DNA of 64,000 bases from NCBI GenBank assembly GCA_023213235.1, contig CP096137.1, positions 2,350,723 to 2,414,722 on the forward strand, given 5' to 3'. Below are positions 11,467-17,647 of the stretch, in pieces (the stretch's first letter is position 1; every line of letters begins with the position of its first letter). The notes beneath the pieces are model-generated. The model saw nothing but the letters and a program-made list of their open reading frames with translations. It was not told the DNA's origin and did no database searches. This DNA comes from Elusimicrobiota bacterium. GTDB taxonomy: Bacteria; Elusimicrobiota; Elusimicrobia; UBA1565; UBA9628. The position numbers and the translations under genes are program-made.

Positions 11467-12716
11467 CTAACGCCCCAGCAACGCGAGAAGCCCGGTCTTC
11501 GTGAGCTGGTAGTCCCGCCGGCGGTCCGCGTAGAGCATCTTGTAGCTCAAGGCTCTTTGCGCGGCCCCGAGGGCGTCGGGGGAATTCTTGACCCCGCGCT
11601 CGTACTCGTCGAGGGTCCGGGCGAGGTACTTCGAACCCTGCGCGATGCGCTCCTCGGCGTAGTGGACGAGTTCGTGATCGTGCTTGAGGTCTTCCTTGGC
11701 GACGCGCACCTCGGCGTCGAGCGCGAGCTCGCGCTGGACCCGCTGGCGCCCGACGCCCTCCTCCCGCAGGCGCAGCGCGGCCGCTTCCGACGTCGACCGG
11801 AGGCCGTCGAACAGGAAGAAGTTCAGCCTGGCTCCGACCGCCTTGTCGAGGCGGTCCCGCCGGGTCTGATACTCGCGCTCGCGCAAGGTATAGAGGTAAT
11901 AGCCGCCGTAGAGATCGAGCTCCGGCTGCCACCACCGGCCGGCGCGCAGGCGCTCCACGCCGAGAGCTTTTCCGCGAGCCGCCATGTCGCTCGCGTCCGG
12001 GTGGGAGCCGGGCTCGAACGGAGCCGACAGGAGGGATTCGTCGTGCTCGTGGCCCACGGTTTCCGGGGTTCTGAATTTCGACTCGAGCGGCATGCCCAGC
12101 GCGGCGGAGAGCTCGATCTCGAGCAGGAGGGCGGCGTGCGTCAGGCTCTCGCGCTCCTCGCGCAGCTGCGACCGGTGAATCTCGAACTCGAGGCGGTCCG
12201 TGTCGGTGGCGAGCCCCCGGCTGACCCGCCGCGCGGCGACCGCGAGCGTCTTCTCGTTCTGCTCCAGCGCCTCGACGACGATCCGGACCTTCTCCCGCGT
12301 CGAGACGAGCCGCCAATACGCGCTTCGCGCTCCCGCGAGCTCGGCGGCGGCCGTCCTGCGCGCGTCGGCCCCCGCGGCTTGGATCTGAAGCTCGCGTCCC
12401 GATTCCTCCAGCCGGTCTCGTCCGCCGCGGAAGACGTTGACCTTGGCCTCCAGGTGCCCGTAGGGCTGGCTCTTCGGGTCGTGCGTGCCCGTCTTGAAGC
12501 GCTCCGCCCCGGCCTCGCCCGACAAGGTCGGCAGGAACGAGCGGCCCAGCGACCCGGTCCGAGCCCGGGCCGAGTCGACGAGGCGCTCCGCCCCGGAGAC
12601 CGCGCGGTTCTTCTCCGCGACGAGCCGCGGCAGATCCTCGAACGTCACCTCGACCTCCGTTTGAGCGCGGGCGGGGAGGCGCCCGTCAAGAGGAGCACGG
12701 CCAGCAGGCGGCGCAT
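11467..12716 (-). CDS. TolC/CzcC-family outer membrane protein (frameshift in G-run ~12675)
   Basis: ATG 12716 MRRLLAVLLL; restoring one base gives SPARAQTEVEVTFEDL into the 393-aa OEP ORF. Confidence 0.85.
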
Positions 12717-12717
12717 G

Positions 12718-13164
12718 CTAATCCAGGTTGTCGAAGGCGGCCAGCAGTTCCCGGTCGCCTTCCTTGAAGACCGCGTCGATGTTGAACGGCTTGGTCCCGG
12801 CCTTGGGAGCCTTGCCCTTGAACGCGCCGTCCTCGAGGGCGAGCGTGAACGGCGTCTTGCTCGTCTTCTTTTTCTTGTGCGTTTCCAGCACGGCCTTGGC
12901 GGTCTTCGCGAAGCGCGCCGGGTCGAGCGGCTTCATGTCCTTGTCGTAGAGATACACGCGGACGACGCCGTCCTCGGTGCGCGTGAGCTCGGCCTTGTAG
13001 ATCAGCGCGGCCTTCGGGCCGAGCTTGGCCTCCTTGGCCAGCACGACCGCGGTCATGACGCCGCCCATCCTGCCGGCGTCGGTCGTCTTCGGGCCGTGGC
13101 CCTCGTCGTGGGCGAAGGCGGGCAAGGACAGCGACGCGGCGAGCAGAACTCCGAGGTATCTCAT
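12718..13164 (-). CDS. Periplasmic protein with N-terminal His motif (possible metallochaperone)
   Basis: Signal peptide ending PAFA, then HDEGHGPK...GRMGGV; lies between the CusA-like gene and TolC. Confidence 0.75.
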   Translation of the reverse strand: MRYLGVLLAASLSLPAFAHDEGHGPKTTDAGRMGGVMTAVVLAKEAKLGPKAALIYKAELTRTEDGVVRVYLYDKDMKPLDPARFAKTAKAVLETHKKKKTSKTPFTLALEDGAFKGKAPKAGTKPFNIDAVFKEGDRELLAAFDNLD

Positions 13165-16100
13165 AGCATGTCTCCTTTCGCGGCTTTTTCGGCTTCTTCC
13201 TTCTCCAGAGCGATGAGCGCTTCCGCGGGCCCCCGCCCGTAGCGCAGGAACACGGCGGGGGTCACGAAGATGTCGAGCAAGGTGGACGAGAACAGGCCGC
13301 CCACGATGACGACGGCGACCGGGTAGAGAATCTCCTTGCCGGGGTCGCCCTTCGAGAGCAGCAGCGGCACGAGCGCCAGCGCCGCGGTGAGCGCCGTCAT
13401 CAGTACGGGCACGAGCCGCTCGAGGGAGCCGCGCACGATCATCTTCTCGCCGAACTCCTCGCCTTCCTCCTTCATCAGGTGGATGTAGTGGCTGATCATC
13501 ATGATGCCGTTGCGGCTGGCGATGCCGCACAGCGTGATGAAGGCGATCAAGGTCGCCACCGAGAGCGTGCGCTCCGTCAGCCAGATCGCCCAGAGGCTGC
13601 CGATCAGCGCGAGCGGAACGTTGAGCATGATCTGGAGCGCCAGGATCGACGACTTGAAATGGGCGTACAGCACGACGAATATCCCGGCCAGCGACGCGAG
13701 CCCGAGCAGGAGCAGCAGCCGCGACGCCTTCTGCTGACTTTCGAACTGCCCGCCGTATGAGATGAAGTAGCCCTCCGGCAGGCGGACCTTCGCCGCGACC
13801 TTCTCCTGGATCTCCTCGATGAGGCCGCCGAGGTCGCGCCCGTGGGAGTTGGCCGAGACCACGATGCGCCGCTGCATGCTCTCGCGGTTGATCATGTTGG
13901 GCCCGGTTCCCGCGTACACCTCGGCCAGGTCGCCGACCGTCGCGAGGCGCCCGTTCGGCAAAGTCTTGACCACGGTCGCCTCGATGGCCTCGGGGTCGGC
14001 GCGCGACTTGTCGTCGAGGCGCATGAAGATGTCGTAGATGCGCTGGCGCTCGAGCACCGTGCCCACGGCCTCGCCGTTGAGCGCCATCTCGAGGTCCGCC
14101 GCGAGCGCGCCCGGGCGCATCGCCAGGCTCGCCGCCGCCTCCCGGTCCACCGCGATCTTGAGCTGGGGGATCAGCACGAGAGGCTCGAGCGACAGATCGA
14201 CGACGCCCGGAACCTCCCGGAGCACGGCCTCGACCTCCGCGCCGAGGCGGCGGAGCTCGCTGAGCTCCGGCCCCGACACCTTGATCGCGATCTGCGCGCG
14301 CACGCCGGACAGAAGATGGTCGAGGCGGTGGCTGATGGGCTGGCCGATGTTGACCGAGACGTCGCCGGCCTTTTCCACGCTCGCGCGGATGTCCTGGAGA
14401 ACCTGGTCGCGGGGGCGACCGCCTTCCTTGAAGTCGACGTCGATCTCGCTCCAATGCACGCCCTCGGCGTGCTCGTCGAGCTCGGCGCGGCCGGTGCGGC
14501 GGATGGTGGACTTGACCTCGGGCACCGACAGCATGGCCGCCTCGATGCGCAGGCCGAGCGAGTCGGAGGCCGCGAGCGAAATCCCCGGCGCGGCCGCGAT
14601 GCCGATCGTGGCCGTGCCCTCGTTGAAGGCCGGCAGGAAATTGCGCCCCATGAACGGCAGCAGCGCCAGCGACGCCAGGAGCAGCGCCGCGCAGCCCCCG
14701 AGCAGTGCGTTCGGCCTGCGGATCGTGGCGGCCAGAAGCCTCCGGTCCCAGCTCTTGAGCTTGCGGACGACCGCGCCGTCCTCGTGCCGCGCGATCGACT
14801 TGGCGTTGGGGAGAAGGTAGGAGCAGAGAGCGGGCGTCACGGTCAGGGAAACGACCAGCGAGGCGAGCAACGACACGATGTAGGCCACGCCGAGCGGCGC
14901 GAAGAGCCTGCCCTCGATGCCGCCGAGCGCGAAGAGCGGGAGGAAGACGAGCACGACGATGATCGTCGAGAACACGATCGAGTTGCGGACCTCGGAGGAG
15001 GCCTCGTAGACGACGCGCAGCGAGCTCTTCGGCTCCCCGGCCGCCTTGTTCTCGCGCAGGCGGCGGAAGACGTTCTCGACGTCGACGATCGCGTCGTCGA
15101 CGAGCTCGCCGATCGCGACGGCCAGGCCGCCGAGGGTCATGGTGTTGATGCCGAGGCCCATCAGCTTGAAGATGATGGCGCTGATCAGCAGGGAGAGCGG
15201 GATGGCGACCAAGGTGATCGCCGTCGTGCGCAGGTTGACGAGGAACAGGAAGAGAATCACGGCGACCATGATCGCGCCGTCTCGCAAGGCCTCCTCGACG
15301 TTCGAGACGGCGGACTCGATGAACCGGGACTGCTTGAACAGGTCGCCCTCGAGCTTCGCTCCGGGCGGCAGGCCCTTCCGCAGCTCGAGGATCATCGCGT
15401 CGATCCGGCGCGTGAGCTCGATCGTGCCCGCCCCGGGCTGCTTCTGGATCGTCATGACGACCGCGTGCTTGCCGTTGACGCTGGCCTCGCCGCGCTTGAG
15501 CTTCGCGCCGACGCGGACCTCGGCGACGTCCTTGACGAGCACCGGGCGGCCCAGGTGCATGCCGACCGGCGACTCCTCGATCTCCTCCGCCGACTCGGCT
15601 CGGGCCAGCGGGCGGATCAGGAACTCCTTGTCGCCGACGTCGATGAAGCCGCCGGTCGTGTTCTCGCTGATCTCGGAGAGCGAGCGCTTGAGGTCCTCGA
15701 GCGAGATGCCTTTGCGCTGGAGACGGTCACCGGAGACGAGGATTTGGTACTGCTTGACCTGTCCGCCCATCACGACCACCTGGCTGATCCCCGGGATGGT
15801 CATGAGCCGCGGGCGCACCACCCAGTCCGCCAGCGTGCGCAGCTCCATCGGGCTGACGGCGCCGTCCGGGCTCGTGAGCCCGACGAACTGGATCTCGCCC
15901 ATGATCGAGCTGACGGGCCCCATGATCGGGACCATGCCCGCGGGCAGGGAATCCTTGACGAGTTGCAGGCGCTCGGAGACGAGCTGACGGTTGCGGAAGA
16001 TCTCGGTGCCCCAGTCGAACTCGACATGGACGATCGAGATGCCGATGCCGCTCGAGGAGCGCACGCGGACCACGCCGGGAGTGCCGTTGAGCGCCGCCTC

Positions 16101-16307
16101 GATCGGGTACGTGACGAGGGTCTCGACCTCTTCGGGCGCCAGGCCGTGGGCCTCCGTCAAAATGGCCACGGTCGGCCGGTTGAGGTCCGGGAACACGTCG
16201 ACCGGCAGCCGCGAGGCGACCCACGCCCCGTAGGCCGAGAGAACGGCGGCCAGGGCGAGGACGGCGAAGCGGCGGTTCAGCGAGAAACGAATGATGGCGT
16301 CGAGCAT
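13161..16307 (-). CDS. CusA/CzcA family heavy-metal RND efflux transporter
   Basis: MLDAIIRFSL, LPVDVFPDL, GLAPEEVE, GELVDDAIVDVEN, GRAELDEHAEGVH; AAGGGAG RBS. Confidence 0.95.
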   Translation of the reverse strand: MLDAIIRFSLNRRFAVLALAAVLSAYGAWVASRLPVDVFPDLNRPTVAILTEAHGLAPEEVETLVTYPIEAALNGTPGVVRVRSSSGIGISIVHVEFDWGTEIFRNRQLVSERLQLVKDSLPAGMVPIMGPVSSIMGEIQFVGLTSPDGAVSPMELRTLADWVVRPRLMTIPGISQVVVMGGQVKQYQILVSGDRLQRKGISLEDLKRSLSEISENTTGGFIDVGDKEFLIRPLARAESAEEIEESPVGMHLGRPVLVKDVAEVRVGAKLKRGEASVNGKHAVVMTIQKQPGAGTIELTRRIDAMILELRKGLPPGAKLEGDLFKQSRFIESAVSNVEEALRDGAIMVAVILFLFLVNLRTTAITLVAIPLSLLISAIIFKLMGLGINTMTLGGLAVAIGELVDDAIVDVENVFRRLRENKAAGEPKSSLRVVYEASSEVRNSIVFSTIIVVLVFLPLFALGGIEGRLFAPLGVAYIVSLLASLVVSLTVTPALCSYLLPNAKSIARHEDGAVVRKLKSWDRRLLAATIRRPNALLGGCAALLLASLALLPFMGRNFLPAFNEGTATIGIAAAPGISLAASDSLGLRIEAAMLSVPEVKSTIRRTGRAELDEHAEGVHWSEIDVDFKEGGRPRDQVLQDIRASVEKAGDVSVNIGQPISHRLDHLLSGVRAQIAIKVSGPELSELRRLGAEVEAVLREVPGVVDLSLEPLVLIPQLKIAVDREAAASLAMRPGALAADLEMALNGEAVGTVLERQRIYDIFMRLDDKSRADPEAIEATVVKTLPNGRLATVGDLAEVYAGTGPNMINRESMQRRIVVSANSHGRDLGGLIEEIQEKVAAKVRLPEGYFISYGGQFESQQKASRLLLLLGLASLAGIFVVLYAHFKSSILALQIMLNVPLALIGSLWAIWLTERTLSVATLIAFITLCGIASRNGIMMISHYIHLMKEEGEEFGEKMIVRGSLERLVPVLMTALTAALALVPLLLSKGDPGKEILYPVAVVIVGGLFSSTLLDIFVTPAVFLRYGRGPAEALIALEKEEAEKAAKGDML

Positions 16308-16340
16308 CGGGCTCCCTTGCGGCGCGCGCAAGACCGGCGG

Positions 16341-16766
16341 TCAGCGAGTTTCGGGACGAGGCGGGGACGACCGTCCGAGGCGGGAGTTAGGCGGGGGAGC
16401 GCGCCCGGCGGAGGAAGACGAGACGAAACACGTCGATCGAAGCGGCGGCGGATCGAGGGCCGCCGAGGCCGGAGGGCGAGGCAGGGTCGCGTCCGCGGAC
16501 GCCGGCGCCTCGGCGGCGGGACGCTCGAGGCGCGGGCCCGGGGCGAACGTCACGCCGGGCGCGGCGATGCGCGCGACGTCGTCGGTGTGGCGAAGAGCGT
16601 CCTCGTCGTGATGGTCCGCGGCCTCGTGCTCGTGCGCGTGGACGGTCCCGTCGTCGTGGCCGTGGACATGCGCCGAGTCGACCGCGTGGACGAGCGCGAG
16701 CGTCCCGACGGGGCAGAAGGCCGCGATGAAGACGGCGACGCTCATGAACGTCCGGGCGAGGCTCAC
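16341..16766 (-). CDS. His-rich exported leader protein with RAPP motif (probably ends GRAPPA* at 16387 after G-run correction)
   Basis: TGgTATAAC-6 nt-GTG; hydrophobic N-terminus; HVHGHDDGTVHAHEHEAADHHDED; GRAPP near the end; first gene of the metal-efflux operon. Confidence 0.7.
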   Translation of the reverse strand: MSLARTFMSVAVFIAAFCPVGTLALVHAVDSAHVHGHDDGTVHAHEHEAADHHDEDALRHTDDVARIAAPGVTFAPGPRLERPAAEAPASADATLPRPPASAALDPPPLRSTCFVSSSSAGRAPPPNSRLGRSSPPRPETR

Positions 16767-16876
16767 GACACCGTTATACCAGAAGAGTCCCATTACGGCA
16801 AGTGGCGGCCCTCACCGGCTCGTCCTCAACCAACTTTTAATTGGCGCGCCCCGCGTCCCGGCGCTATACTGGCCGG

Positions 16877-17647
16877 ATGAAACGAGCCCTCCCGCTTGCC
16901 GCCGTCCTCGCCGTCTCGACGGCCTGCTCGCACCACCGGCCGGCGTCCGCGCCTTCGAATGAGGGCGCGCTGCGCCCGCCCGTCGCCGACGAGGCGCACG
17001 GGATGCGCGGCGCGGATCGCGAGGCCGCCCTGCTGGTCCAGCGGTCCCATTATCAGAACGTGCTCGACGCCTACGGCCCGCTCGTGCTCGAGGGCGTCGA
17101 CTGGAAGGATCCGAAGAAGCCGGCGCGCTGCGAGATCACGGTGACCTTGCCGGAGACCGGCTACCGCGAGGGCTCCTTCGTCGACGGCCTCCCGGTGCGC
17201 CGCGCCCAGCCGGTCGTGTTCAACCGTTTCCAGCAGCAGGTCGTCGAAGGGCTCACTCGCTGCGGAAGCGAGATGGCCTTCACGTCGCGGACTTGGACGG
17301 GGCTCCAAGACTCGGCGCGCGCGCTCGTCCTGAAAAATTCCGGGACGACGTTCTGCCTGAAGGACGAGGACTGCTACGGCGTCGAGATCCTCGACCCGTG
17401 CGGCGGGCGTCCGGCGCAGAAGGTCTTCGGCTCCGACTCGACGGACCCCGTCTTCTTCATCGCCTACCGGAAGTTCATGCCGGTGCTGCTCGTCAACGTC
17501 GCCCAGCAGGCCCACGGCGCGGCCGCCCGCTTGGGGAAGACGCACCCCGATCACGGCGCCCCGCGCGGCTGTCCGATGAGGCACTGGGAGGAGCGCCCGC
17601 TCGAGGCGGCGTGCGTGCGGAACTCCTGCCGCGCGAAGACGCCTTAG
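16877..17647 (+). CDS. Hypothetical lipoprotein
   Basis: TATACT-6 nt-ATG; MKRALPLAAVLAVSTAC lipobox; several Cys. Confidence 0.7.
   Translation: MKRALPLAAVLAVSTACSHHRPASAPSNEGALRPPVADEAHGMRGADREAALLVQRSHYQNVLDAYGPLVLEGVDWKDPKKPARCEITVTLPETGYREGSFVDGLPVRRAQPVVFNRFQQQVVEGLTRCGSEMAFTSRTWTGLQDSARALVLKNSGTTFCLKDEDCYGVEILDPCGGRPAQKVFGSDSTDPVFFIAYRKFMPVLLVNVAQQAHGAAARLGKTHPDHGAPRGCPMRHWEERPLEAACVRNSCRAKTP

Follow-up and report, generated by a model that had tools for sequence, protein, structure and literature searches.

Leader peptides of metal operons

Exported peptides that arrest their own ribosome are known upstream of metal genes in bacteria, the closest described being CruR of Bordetella pertussis and CutF of Rhodobacter capsulatus. 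Here we compare with them a His-rich leader open reading frame (ORF) from an Elusimicrobiota bacterium, found on the reverse strand of a 64,000-nucleotide stretch of its genome (GCA_023213235.1, contig CP096137.1, positions 2,350,723 to 2,414,722; hereafter the window). The leader is encoded ahead of a heavy-metal permease of the resistance-nodulation-division (RND) type, and carries an Arg-Ala-Pro-Pro (RAPP) motif near its C-terminus. We consider it rather likely that it is a cis-acting, metal-sensing arrest upstream ORF (uORF) of the CutF/CruR kind, a short, disordered, Sec-exported peptide that would turn on the pump genes behind it when metal is in excess.

At a RAPP sequence the ribosome is arrested with the Pro codons in its P and A sites, and the arrest is refractory to EF-P (PMC12992588; PMC10951233). 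The motif is reported to be strongly avoided in proteomes, except in leaders of this kind (PMC12992588). ApdA, ApdP, ApcA and a RAPP/RGPP set from Streptomyces lividans (Sakiyama 2021; Fujiwara 2024/2025; Morici 2024) resemble the present leader in having a C-terminal RAPP, a localisation signal and a small size, and in standing before a regulated gene. The characterised RAPP/RGPP peptides monitor Sec or YidC, whereas the genes downstream of the His-type leaders encode RND permeases, outer-membrane efflux proteins (OEP) and membrane-fusion proteins (MFP). Two metal-linked members that have been studied, SLIV_16130 and SLIV_18480, are actinobacterial and have Cys/His or transmembrane sensors. 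According to Fujiwara et al. (2025), small secretory ORFs with RAPP or RGPP are enriched before metal genes; in the source data of their Fig. 4B, CusA/CzcA RND genes lie downstream of RAPP uORFs in 50 cases against 7 for AAPP, and are among the 30 most enriched downstream classes (PMC12992588). The window's own ORF is one row of their list of RAPP uORFs (PMC12992588, supplement file 6).

In CruR (Bp2923), copper relieves the RAPP arrest and Rho then terminates transcription in a C-rich spacer; CruR governs an importer, and its signal peptide is reported not to be required (PMC9426467). In CutF, periplasmic copper is reported to prolong the stalling of the exported chain, and a stem that masks the Shine-Dalgarno (SD) sequence opens (PMC9973294; 10.1101/2025.02.05.636593). 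Ozturk et al. (2023) describe 29 CutF-like clusters in a sequence similarity network, of which the His-only clusters 14 and 17 adjoin HupE/UreJ; their Cys-rich CutF-like genes adjoin genes for OEP, ACR_tran and HlyD_D23 proteins (PMC9973294). CzcI of Cupriavidus metallidurans is also a small protein encoded directly before pump genes (czcCBA) and has been suggested to be a metal-sensing regulator; it is set apart by its description, which reports it without a C-terminal Pro motif (PMC9973294).

The leader and its conserved geometry

As sequenced, the leader ORF (16341..16766, reverse strand) encodes 141 amino acids (aa), from a GTG at 16766 to a stop at 16343-16341. An in-frame ATG at 16793 would extend it to 150 aa (16341..16793); the GTG is taken as the likelier start because it fits the homologue alignment. 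From the N- to the C-terminus the peptide reads MSLARTFMSVAVFIAAFCPVGTLALVHA, then VDSAHVHGHDDGTVHAHEHEAADHHDED..., a linker rich in Pro, Ala and Ser with a DPP inside it, and finally ...SSSAGRAPPPNSRLGRSSPPRPETR followed by the stop. It contains 10 His and the sequence GRAPP. The putative export signal MSLARTFMSVAVFIAAFCPVGTLALVHA (16683..16766, reverse strand), judged by eye, combines an n-region containing Arg with a hydrophobic core and a cleavage site of the VHA/AHA type. The alignments likewise show a positively charged n-region, a hydrophobic core of 14-16 residues and an AxA-like site. The His cluster H27-H60, HAVDSAHVHGHDDGTVHAHEHEAADHHDEDALRH (16587..16688, reverse strand), has no CxxC and is the presumed metal-binding sensor. 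The conserved DPP motif (16446..16454, reverse strand) lies within the C-terminal arrest module, with its PP 16 residues ahead of the RAPP Arg. The RAPP codons, CGC GCT CCC CCG (16392..16403, reverse strand; Arg codon 16403-16401), form the presumed arrest site by analogy with known leaders. If arrest follows the CruR toeprints (PMC12992588), the stalled ribosome would have the first Pro codon in its P site and the second in its A site. A sequence-only reading of this DNA had already described an export signal, a His tract, a Pro/Ala spacer and GRAPP in the first gene of a "cusA" operon; these features stand, the export signal on the strength of its sequence, while the gene name does not, as explained below.

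Taken alone, RAPP is not unusual in this genome, with 192 occurrences in 1.66 M residues of ORFs rich in G+C at third codon positions (GC3), and the case for the leader is made by its relatives. A word-indexed search found six homologues of 121-131 aa, every one ending in GRAPP[A/V/P] and a stop. A profile built from these six was run against 1.84 billion representative proteins and gave 16 matches at E<=1e-3, two of them fragments; in all 14 full-length matches, [RK]APP is followed by just one or two residues. Since two proteins are shared between the searches, there are 18 distinct full-length homologues, 28-82% identical to the reference and 120-133 aa long. All 18 end in [RK]APP, one or two further residues and the stop (16 with RAPP, two with KAPP), and have a PP within their last six residues. 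This conservation of the end among such divergent proteins is why, on sequence comparison, the feature exceeds chance. Each homologue has 8-13 His, and CxxC or CxxxC occurs in none of the 18. That the terminal RAPP would be conserved, and that His would take the place of CxxC, had both been anticipated by the sequence-only reading.

Columns without variation in the 19-row alignment are those of H22 and H42 and of the motif's A-P-P. At least 90% conserved are H32, H40, a Pro in the signal region, and the PP pair P101/P102. The distances between these elements are also kept. The first His lies 90-103 residues before the RAPP Arg and the last His of the cluster 58-69 residues before it, each in 17 of the 18 homologues, and the PP is exactly 16 residues ahead of the Arg in 13 of the 17 homologues that have it. 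The spacing is kept although the sequence of the linker is poorly conserved. In CruR the corresponding distance, from CxxC to RAPP, is 45 +/- 2 residues. AlphaFold2, run on the same alignment, returned a mean predicted local distance difference test score (pLDDT) of 60.7 and a predicted template modelling score of 0.18, with the N-terminal signal helix alone being predicted (in homologue P0005, helices at residues 2-12 and 16-21 only). The leader peptide is thus probably disordered, as judged from the model, and CruR is likewise reported to be poorly structured.

An alternative is that the mature product acts as a free His-rich metal buffer or chaperone in the periplasm, as has been proposed for CzcI or CusF, with the RAPP having no regulatory role. 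The signal peptide and the 8-13 His would suit such a protein, CzcI precedes czcCBA without a Pro motif (PMC9973294), and the operon already encodes another small periplasmic protein bearing His. Against this, [RK]APP stands at the very end of the chain in all 18 homologues, whereas the remainder of the C-terminal half has diverged; the distance from sensor to RAPP is conserved in a chain predicted to be disordered; and the gene is always first, in either order of the pump genes. The avoidance of RAPP in proteomes outside such leaders (PMC12992588) points the same way. We therefore regard a free protein alone as unlikely, while noting that the two roles are not mutually exclusive.

Operon linkage among relatives

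The family profile was run at E<=1e-4 against 393 genomes of the same class, and all matches were inspected, together with those of the earlier search for relatives and one metagenome contig. Matches were found in 24 of the 393 genomes, representing 14 of 106 genera. Two efflux gene orders are seen. In the first, the leader is followed by the RND gene, a gene for a 148-aa protein and the OEP gene (the window, G025, G010, G015, G027 and metagenome locus L033); four further loci, of which only 1.5 kb was seen, have the leader followed by RND (G471, G167, G254 and G424). In the second, the leader is followed directly by OEP (G034, where MFP and RND genes come next, G031, G455, G466, G448, and G037, where the OEP match is weak at 20.1 bits). 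All 16 loci in which a His-type leader stands ahead of an RND or OEP gene have RAPP, and across both gene orders the leader is always the first gene. The gap to the downstream gene is 24-364 nt. The linkage to metal efflux genes expected from the sequence-only reading is therefore found in 16 loci and in two arrangements.

In six other genomes (G006, G007, G362, G370, G393 and G405), a His-rich leader precedes HupE_UreJ_2, and here [RK]APP is found in none of the six, the motif being TAPP, IPPP, MPPP or AAPP. The ends of these leaders (L027, L063, L065, L070, L071 and L072) read TAPPAV, IPPPFPAS, IPPPSSVS, MPPPS... or AAPPF.... It is probable that they match the His-only clusters of CutF-like proteins already described. 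A general division, with RAPP before efflux genes and other Pro motifs before HupE, does not hold, as the list of Fujiwara et al. (2025) includes His-rich RAPP ORFs before HupE/UreJ in other taxa (PMC12992588). Two profile matches were set aside as not belonging to the family: that in G039 is a His-loop membrane protein, and that in G411 matches only in its His-rich N-terminus, has no Pro motif and is followed by a ferredoxin-like gene.

Cys-type RAPP leaders are also present in the class, before OEP, MFP, RND or multicopper-oxidase genes (G009 and G020). The window genome (G000) itself has a second RAPP leader, outside the window (G000:C1:1634052-1634378, reverse strand; L074:5053-5379). It has 108 aa, a signal peptide, nine Cys and ...SCCPRWRAPP... 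near its end; the genes after it encode an OEP and a multicopper oxidase that has a heavy-metal-binding domain. This Cys-type leader looks like the counterpart of the His-type leader, which fits the idea of exchangeable sensors on one arrest module.

These gene neighbourhoods bear on a further possibility, namely that the leader is a monitoring substrate like ApdP or SecM, whose arrest reports export capacity and tunes the pump to the availability of the translocon. It does have the architecture of ApdA and ApdP, with a signal peptide, a disordered chain and a C-terminal RAPP. The genes downstream, however, are for metal efflux and not sec or yidC; the most conserved part after RAPP is the His cluster, with H22 and H42 invariant and H32 and H40 at least 90% conserved; and the Cys-rich twin in the same genome precedes copper genes. 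We regard this explanation as very improbable.

Relation to known families

No Pfam family matches the window ORF at E<=0.1. The obvious candidate, PF11162 (DUF2946), gives a full-length match in four of the 19 members at E<=10, all of them below the 23.7-bit cut-off (the best scoring 15.4 bits, E 0.032), and a search of the genome with PF11162 did not match the locus. DUF2946 is uncommon in the phylum, exceeding its cut-off in two of 201 genomes. For comparison, a Cys-type set was assembled from three over-cut-off CxxC leaders and two Cys-type RAPP leaders (RAPP/RGPP). In hhalign, the His family aligns with these five leaders with a probability of 78.8% (E 1.7e-5), the match being confined to the last 36 columns, corresponding to PP...R[AG]PP. 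By this comparison, the C-terminal PP-x14-RAPP arrest module is all that the His family shares with DUF2946-type leaders. Matches in NCBIfam are compositional and sub-threshold, to the His-rich nickel proteins RcnA and UreE and the HypB prefix (E>=0.005).

The His family further resembles CruR and the DUF2946 leaders in organisation: predicted export, poor structure, RAPP a few residues before the stop, a distance from ligand to RAPP that is conserved in each, though at different values, a C-rich spacer, and a position as first gene in metal operons. CruR has CxxC, an importer downstream and relief by copper; the His family has CxxC in none of its 18 full-length homologues, and efflux genes downstream. 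CutF is similar in being shorter than 150 aa, Sec-exported and first in a metal-detoxification operon, and in combining a ligand motif for metal with a Pro motif at its C-terminus. It differs in having CxxxC and PPP, which is sensitive to EF-P and is not a strong arrest sequence alone, where the His family has His-only ligands and RAPP. The features by which Ozturk et al. (2023) selected CutF-like proteins are all present (fewer than 150 aa, PP in the last 15 residues, a signal peptide, here judged by eye, and a same-strand gene within 1000 nt); in the window copy as sequenced, RAPP is 16 residues from the end. In the clusters of Ozturk et al., His-only proteins go with HupE/UreJ and the efflux-linked ones are Cys-rich, whereas here a His-only leader precedes RND or OEP. 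The family would thus appear to work like a CruR/CutF-type leader, but falls below the DUF2946 score and has no CxxC.

A short C-run at the RAPP codons

In the window, the C-run on the mRNA strand at 16397-16393, which is the G-run (16393..16397) singled out by the sequence-only reading, is five nucleotides long, one base below the family reading. The DNA at the RAPP end is GCTCCCCCGCCTAA, with one C fewer than in relatives, which have GCTCCCCCCGCCTAA (L023, reading GCT CCC CCC GCC TAA) and GCTCCTCCCGCCTAA (L028, reading GCT CCT CCC GCC TAA). With one C added, the window reads GCT CCC CCC GCC TAA, that is A-P-P-A-stop, with the TAA at 16389-16387, 79 nt ahead of the RND ATG (16307-16305). This is the end that had been predicted from a single added base, at about 80 nt. 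As sequenced, RAPP remains in frame despite the short run, and translation continues for 17 codons past the family stop to end at 16343-16341, some 33-34 nt before the RND start.

The run was assessed against the rest of the genome by scoring changes of GC3-rich codon phase across G/C runs in comparison with random sites. Such changes occur at 6.2% of random sites (632/10230), 9.5% of 4-nt runs (900/9481), 24% of testable 5-nt runs (401/1671) and 67% of 6-nt runs (62/93). Only seven G/C runs of 7 nt are present, and none of 8 nt or more. The assembly, a single 3.80-Mb contig, is 83.6% complete by marker genes, compared with 97-100% for genomes of the same genus. It thus appears to carry systematic homopolymer indels. 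The enrichment of frame changes at G/C runs, together with the longer run in relatives, makes an assembly indel the likely cause of the extension in the window, and we think it very probable that the missing C is an assembly error.

The converse, that the deficit is real, would mean that the strain carries a slipped-strand variant in which ribosomes read the 17 additional codons, down to 16341; they would then cover the spacer and open the hairpin beside the SD, with a change in regulation or its loss as the result. In favour of a real variant, C-runs break the frame in three of the 16 efflux-linked leaders, namely at C5 in the window genome, at C5 in G010 (L024) and at C9 in G037 (L068), and in G010 and G037 the break puts the RAPP module into another frame. 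RAPP is still in frame in the window, and G037 is a 170-contig assembly, its break being either assembly error or perhaps real slippage. The 3-contig assembly of G010, by contrast, has a frame-split OEP gene as well, and the phase changes at 5- and 6-nt runs, the near absence of longer runs and the low completeness all speak against the deficit being genuine. We give it a small chance only. It is worth adding that, with hundreds of homopolymer frameshifts in this assembly, its short ORFs and apparent pseudogenes should be compared against relatives.

The spacer RNA

Between the family stop and the RND start lies a C-rich, G-poor and weakly structured spacer (16308..16386, reverse strand), a candidate Rho loading region, which is partly translated in the window as sequenced. 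The skew (C-G)/(C+G) is about 0.36 on the mRNA strand over 16340-16459. Taken from RAPP to +90, the excess of C over G falls in the 93rd-99th percentile of its operon in seven of eight loci, the window being at the 97th. Of 200 shuffled versions of the window spacer, 196 fold better than the spacer itself (z-score +2.04). The distance from RAPP to the start codon is 47-96 nt in the His family, compared with 162 nt in CruR. A rho gene is present in the genome, and no Rfam family, riboswitches included, matches 16100-17000 at E<=1.

At the downstream end of the spacer there is a local hairpin, CUUGCG-CGCGC-CGCAAG (16332-16316, reverse strand), which abuts the SD sequence AAGGGAG (16318-16312) and the RND ATG, the whole lying within 16305..16332. 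In models of the RND-first loci, the SD is mostly paired by the local hairpin whether or not a ribosome occupies RAPP. A simple unmasking of the SD is therefore unsupported in these loci, since the hairpin pairs it in both states. GCUCC and GGAGC are base-paired in the minimum free energy folds computed for the window, L023 and L028. As a general mechanism, pairing of the RAPP codons as an anti-SD was rejected: the duplex ranks 28-250 among about 370 windows, and accessibility is flat in seven of eight loci. G034 is different. It has a short 47-nt spacer whose stem (z-score -2.90) includes both the RAPP codons and the SD, and placing a ribosome on RAPP raises the modelled probability of an unpaired SD from 0.21 to 0.70. 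A stem or anti-SD read-out, the solution of CutF and SecM, is therefore kept, on the modelling, for G034 alone. For the RND-first loci we favour a Rho-type attenuator that would be shielded by the stalled ribosome, because the spacers are C-rich, unstructured and without a shared fold, and a rho gene is present. Different members of the family may use different read-outs.

Proposed mechanism

On the basis of these observations, we hypothesise that the N-proximal His cluster would bind metal while the chain is still attached to the ribosome, and that the PP-x14-RAPP module would arrest the ribosome one or two codons ahead of the stop. Without metal, the pull of export on the chain would release the arrest and the ribosome would depart, leaving the C-rich, unstructured spacer exposed to Rho, so that the pump is off; in relatives with short spacers, the SD-masking stem would re-form instead, with the same outcome. 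In excess metal, the loaded His cluster would weaken the pull of export, as has been proposed for CutF with copper, and the longer arrest would allow transcription and translation to continue into the RND, periplasmic-protein and OEP genes.

The ribosomal tunnel holds roughly 30-40 residues, and the path through the translocon comes in addition. The 58-69 residues between the last His and RAPP exceed this, so that at arrest the His cluster would just have emerged on the periplasmic side. Sensing in the periplasm is therefore possible, and would suit a pump that takes its substrate from there. The metal sensed may be Ni, Co or Zn, each a divalent ion, which is a reasonable guess.

The polarity adopted, in which metal prolongs arrest and arrest means on, was chosen because only the polarity of CutF makes physiological sense for an efflux pump. 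With the polarity of CruR, arrest at RAPP would by default keep the operon on, and metal bound to the nascent His cluster would generate a folding or pulling force that releases the ribosome and lets Rho terminate. CruR is the only RAPP metal leader with both genetic and in vitro data (PMC9426467, PMC12992588), and its ingredients are present in the window, namely RAPP near the stop, a C-rich unstructured spacer and a rho gene. Such a switch would, however, turn an efflux pump off at high metal, CruR itself controlling an importer, and the last His stands 58-69 residues from RAPP rather than 45. We consider the CruR polarity improbable here.

Several points weigh against the proposal of metal-prolonged arrest. 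Its polarity is argued only by analogy with CutF and from what an efflux pump would need, and the sole characterised RAPP metal leader, CruR, has the opposite polarity and is reported to need no signal peptide (PMC9426467). The modelling does not pin down the RNA step. By their fold z-scores (+2.04, -0.81, +0.25, -0.35, +0.30 and +1.76), the six RND-first spacers are no more structured than shuffled sequences. RNAalifold on these six spacers finds no conserved structure (-3.85 kcal/mol, with only a 4-bp hairpin at the SD and start). The C-richness of the spacer is partly due to Pro, Ala and Ser codons. The modelled accessibility of the SD is hardly altered by a ribosome on RAPP in seven of eight loci, and the anti-SD pairing of the RAPP codons failed as a general mechanism. 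The three frame-broken leaders among the 16 that are efflux-linked count here as well. The public sequencing runs searched for this DNA contain at best no more than 0.17 of the sampled words, with no RNA run listed among them, and four runs gave no contig of this organism across 16393-16397.

The hints to the identity of the metal are also weak. They consist of the His-only ligands, the sub-threshold His-rich matches to the RcnA and UreE models, an RND permease without Met at the CusA triad and with two His among the aligned residues, and the occurrence of HDDGTVHAHEH at the N-terminus of mycobacterial HypB as well. HypB is a nickel insertion protein.

The pattern H-x-DGTVHAHEH is found, apart from the N-terminus of mycobacterial HypB, in a stretch resembling a cytoplasmic loop in multi-pass membrane proteins of planctomycetes, Kuenenia and Nitrosopumilaceae (the loci with the pattern being L001, L003, L005, L006, L008, L009, L011-L014, L034-L040, L044 and L046, and L002, L007, L010, L043 and L045). 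A pattern search of genome contigs gave 14 loci, all of them His-loop membrane proteins or HypB and none a family member; in metagenome contigs it gave 14 loci with one family member (L033). The His-loop membrane proteins were not called RcnA, as no Pfam or NCBIfam model matches them at E<=1e-3.

Downstream genes and neighbours

The RND permease (13161..16307, reverse strand) has 1048 aa and belongs to the CusA/CzcA heavy-metal family (PF00873, 863 bits; TIGR00914, 801.9 bits against a cut-off of 701). Its closest relatives of solved structure are CusA (496 bits) and ZneA (447 bits). The three-methionine metal site of CusA we take to be M573, M623 and M672 (E. coli numbering). In the phmmer alignment to CusA chains, the residues aligned with these are not Met (G/I; W beside H; H). 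The name cusA is therefore too specific for this gene.

Between the RND and OEP genes is a gene (12718..13164, reverse strand) for a 148-aa periplasmic protein with a His-rich N-terminus, which is kept in six loci at 59-85% identity and has no match to a Pfam or NCBIfam family. AlphaFold2 predicts an Ig-like β-sandwich (pLDDT 80.4) with a disordered N-terminus, HDEGHGPK. A Foldseek search of the PDB with this model gave nothing at E<=1e-3, H. pylori CrdA being at rank 41. On the strength of the model, the protein may be a periplasmic metal chaperone. It is followed by the gene for a TolC-like OEP (11467..12648, reverse strand).

None of the six RND/OEP operons seen in full (window 11467-16793, reverse strand, and L023, L024, L025, L028 and L033) contains a gene for a membrane-fusion (adaptor) protein. 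The nearest HlyD_D23 match in the window genome is about 17 kb away, just beyond the window start. An MFP gene is present, by contrast, in G034 and G020, both OEP-first relatives.

A scan of neighbouring ORFs revealed no metal-sensing transcription factor. Upstream of the leader, a divergent ORF (16841-17647, forward strand) encodes 268 aa with a lipoprotein-like N-terminus (...AVSTACSHH) and matches nothing in Pfam or NCBIfam. At the start of this ORF lies the one sigma-70-like promoter match of the region (16841-16870, forward strand).

Significance

The interpretation offered by the sequence-only reading is partly supported, and each point in it that sequence could address came out as predicted. 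The novelty that it assumed is another matter, for RAPP uORFs before CusA/CzcA pumps, and His-only CutF-like proteins, are already in print (PMC12992588; PMC9973294). The main text of PMC12992588 mentions neither "efflux" nor "RND", and in the open-access literature searched there was no paper characterising a His-type or non-copper RAPP leader, or a leader of any RND pump. The leader is thus a good candidate rather than a surprise: the kind is known, and it is the His version that is put forward here, on the sequence data.

To our knowledge, the metal-sensing leaders tested so far all respond to copper, through cysteines. We suggest, tentatively and with less assurance than for the leader itself, that His-type RAPP leaders are nascent-chain sensors for a metal other than copper (Ni, Co or Zn), read at the exit of the translocon, and that sensors are exchangeable on the PP-x14-RAPP module. 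If this is true, the two kinds of leader serve different systems in one genome, the His-type a divalent-metal RND pump and the Cys-type a copper system of OEP and multicopper oxidase.

Control of heavy-metal RND pumps is usually ascribed to two-component systems, extracytoplasmic function (ECF) sigma factors or MerR/ArsR regulators. The present leader would, if confirmed, be the first switch of a heavy-metal RND pump to be based on a peptide and to work without a transcription factor, as well as the first RAPP leader to be metal-induced and not metal-relieved. Sensing metal on the ribosome would give a faster switch. The conserved geometry, the simple operon and the Cys-type twin would together allow a clean test of whether such sensing extends to Ni, Co or Zn, and of how metal affects the force on an arrested chain.

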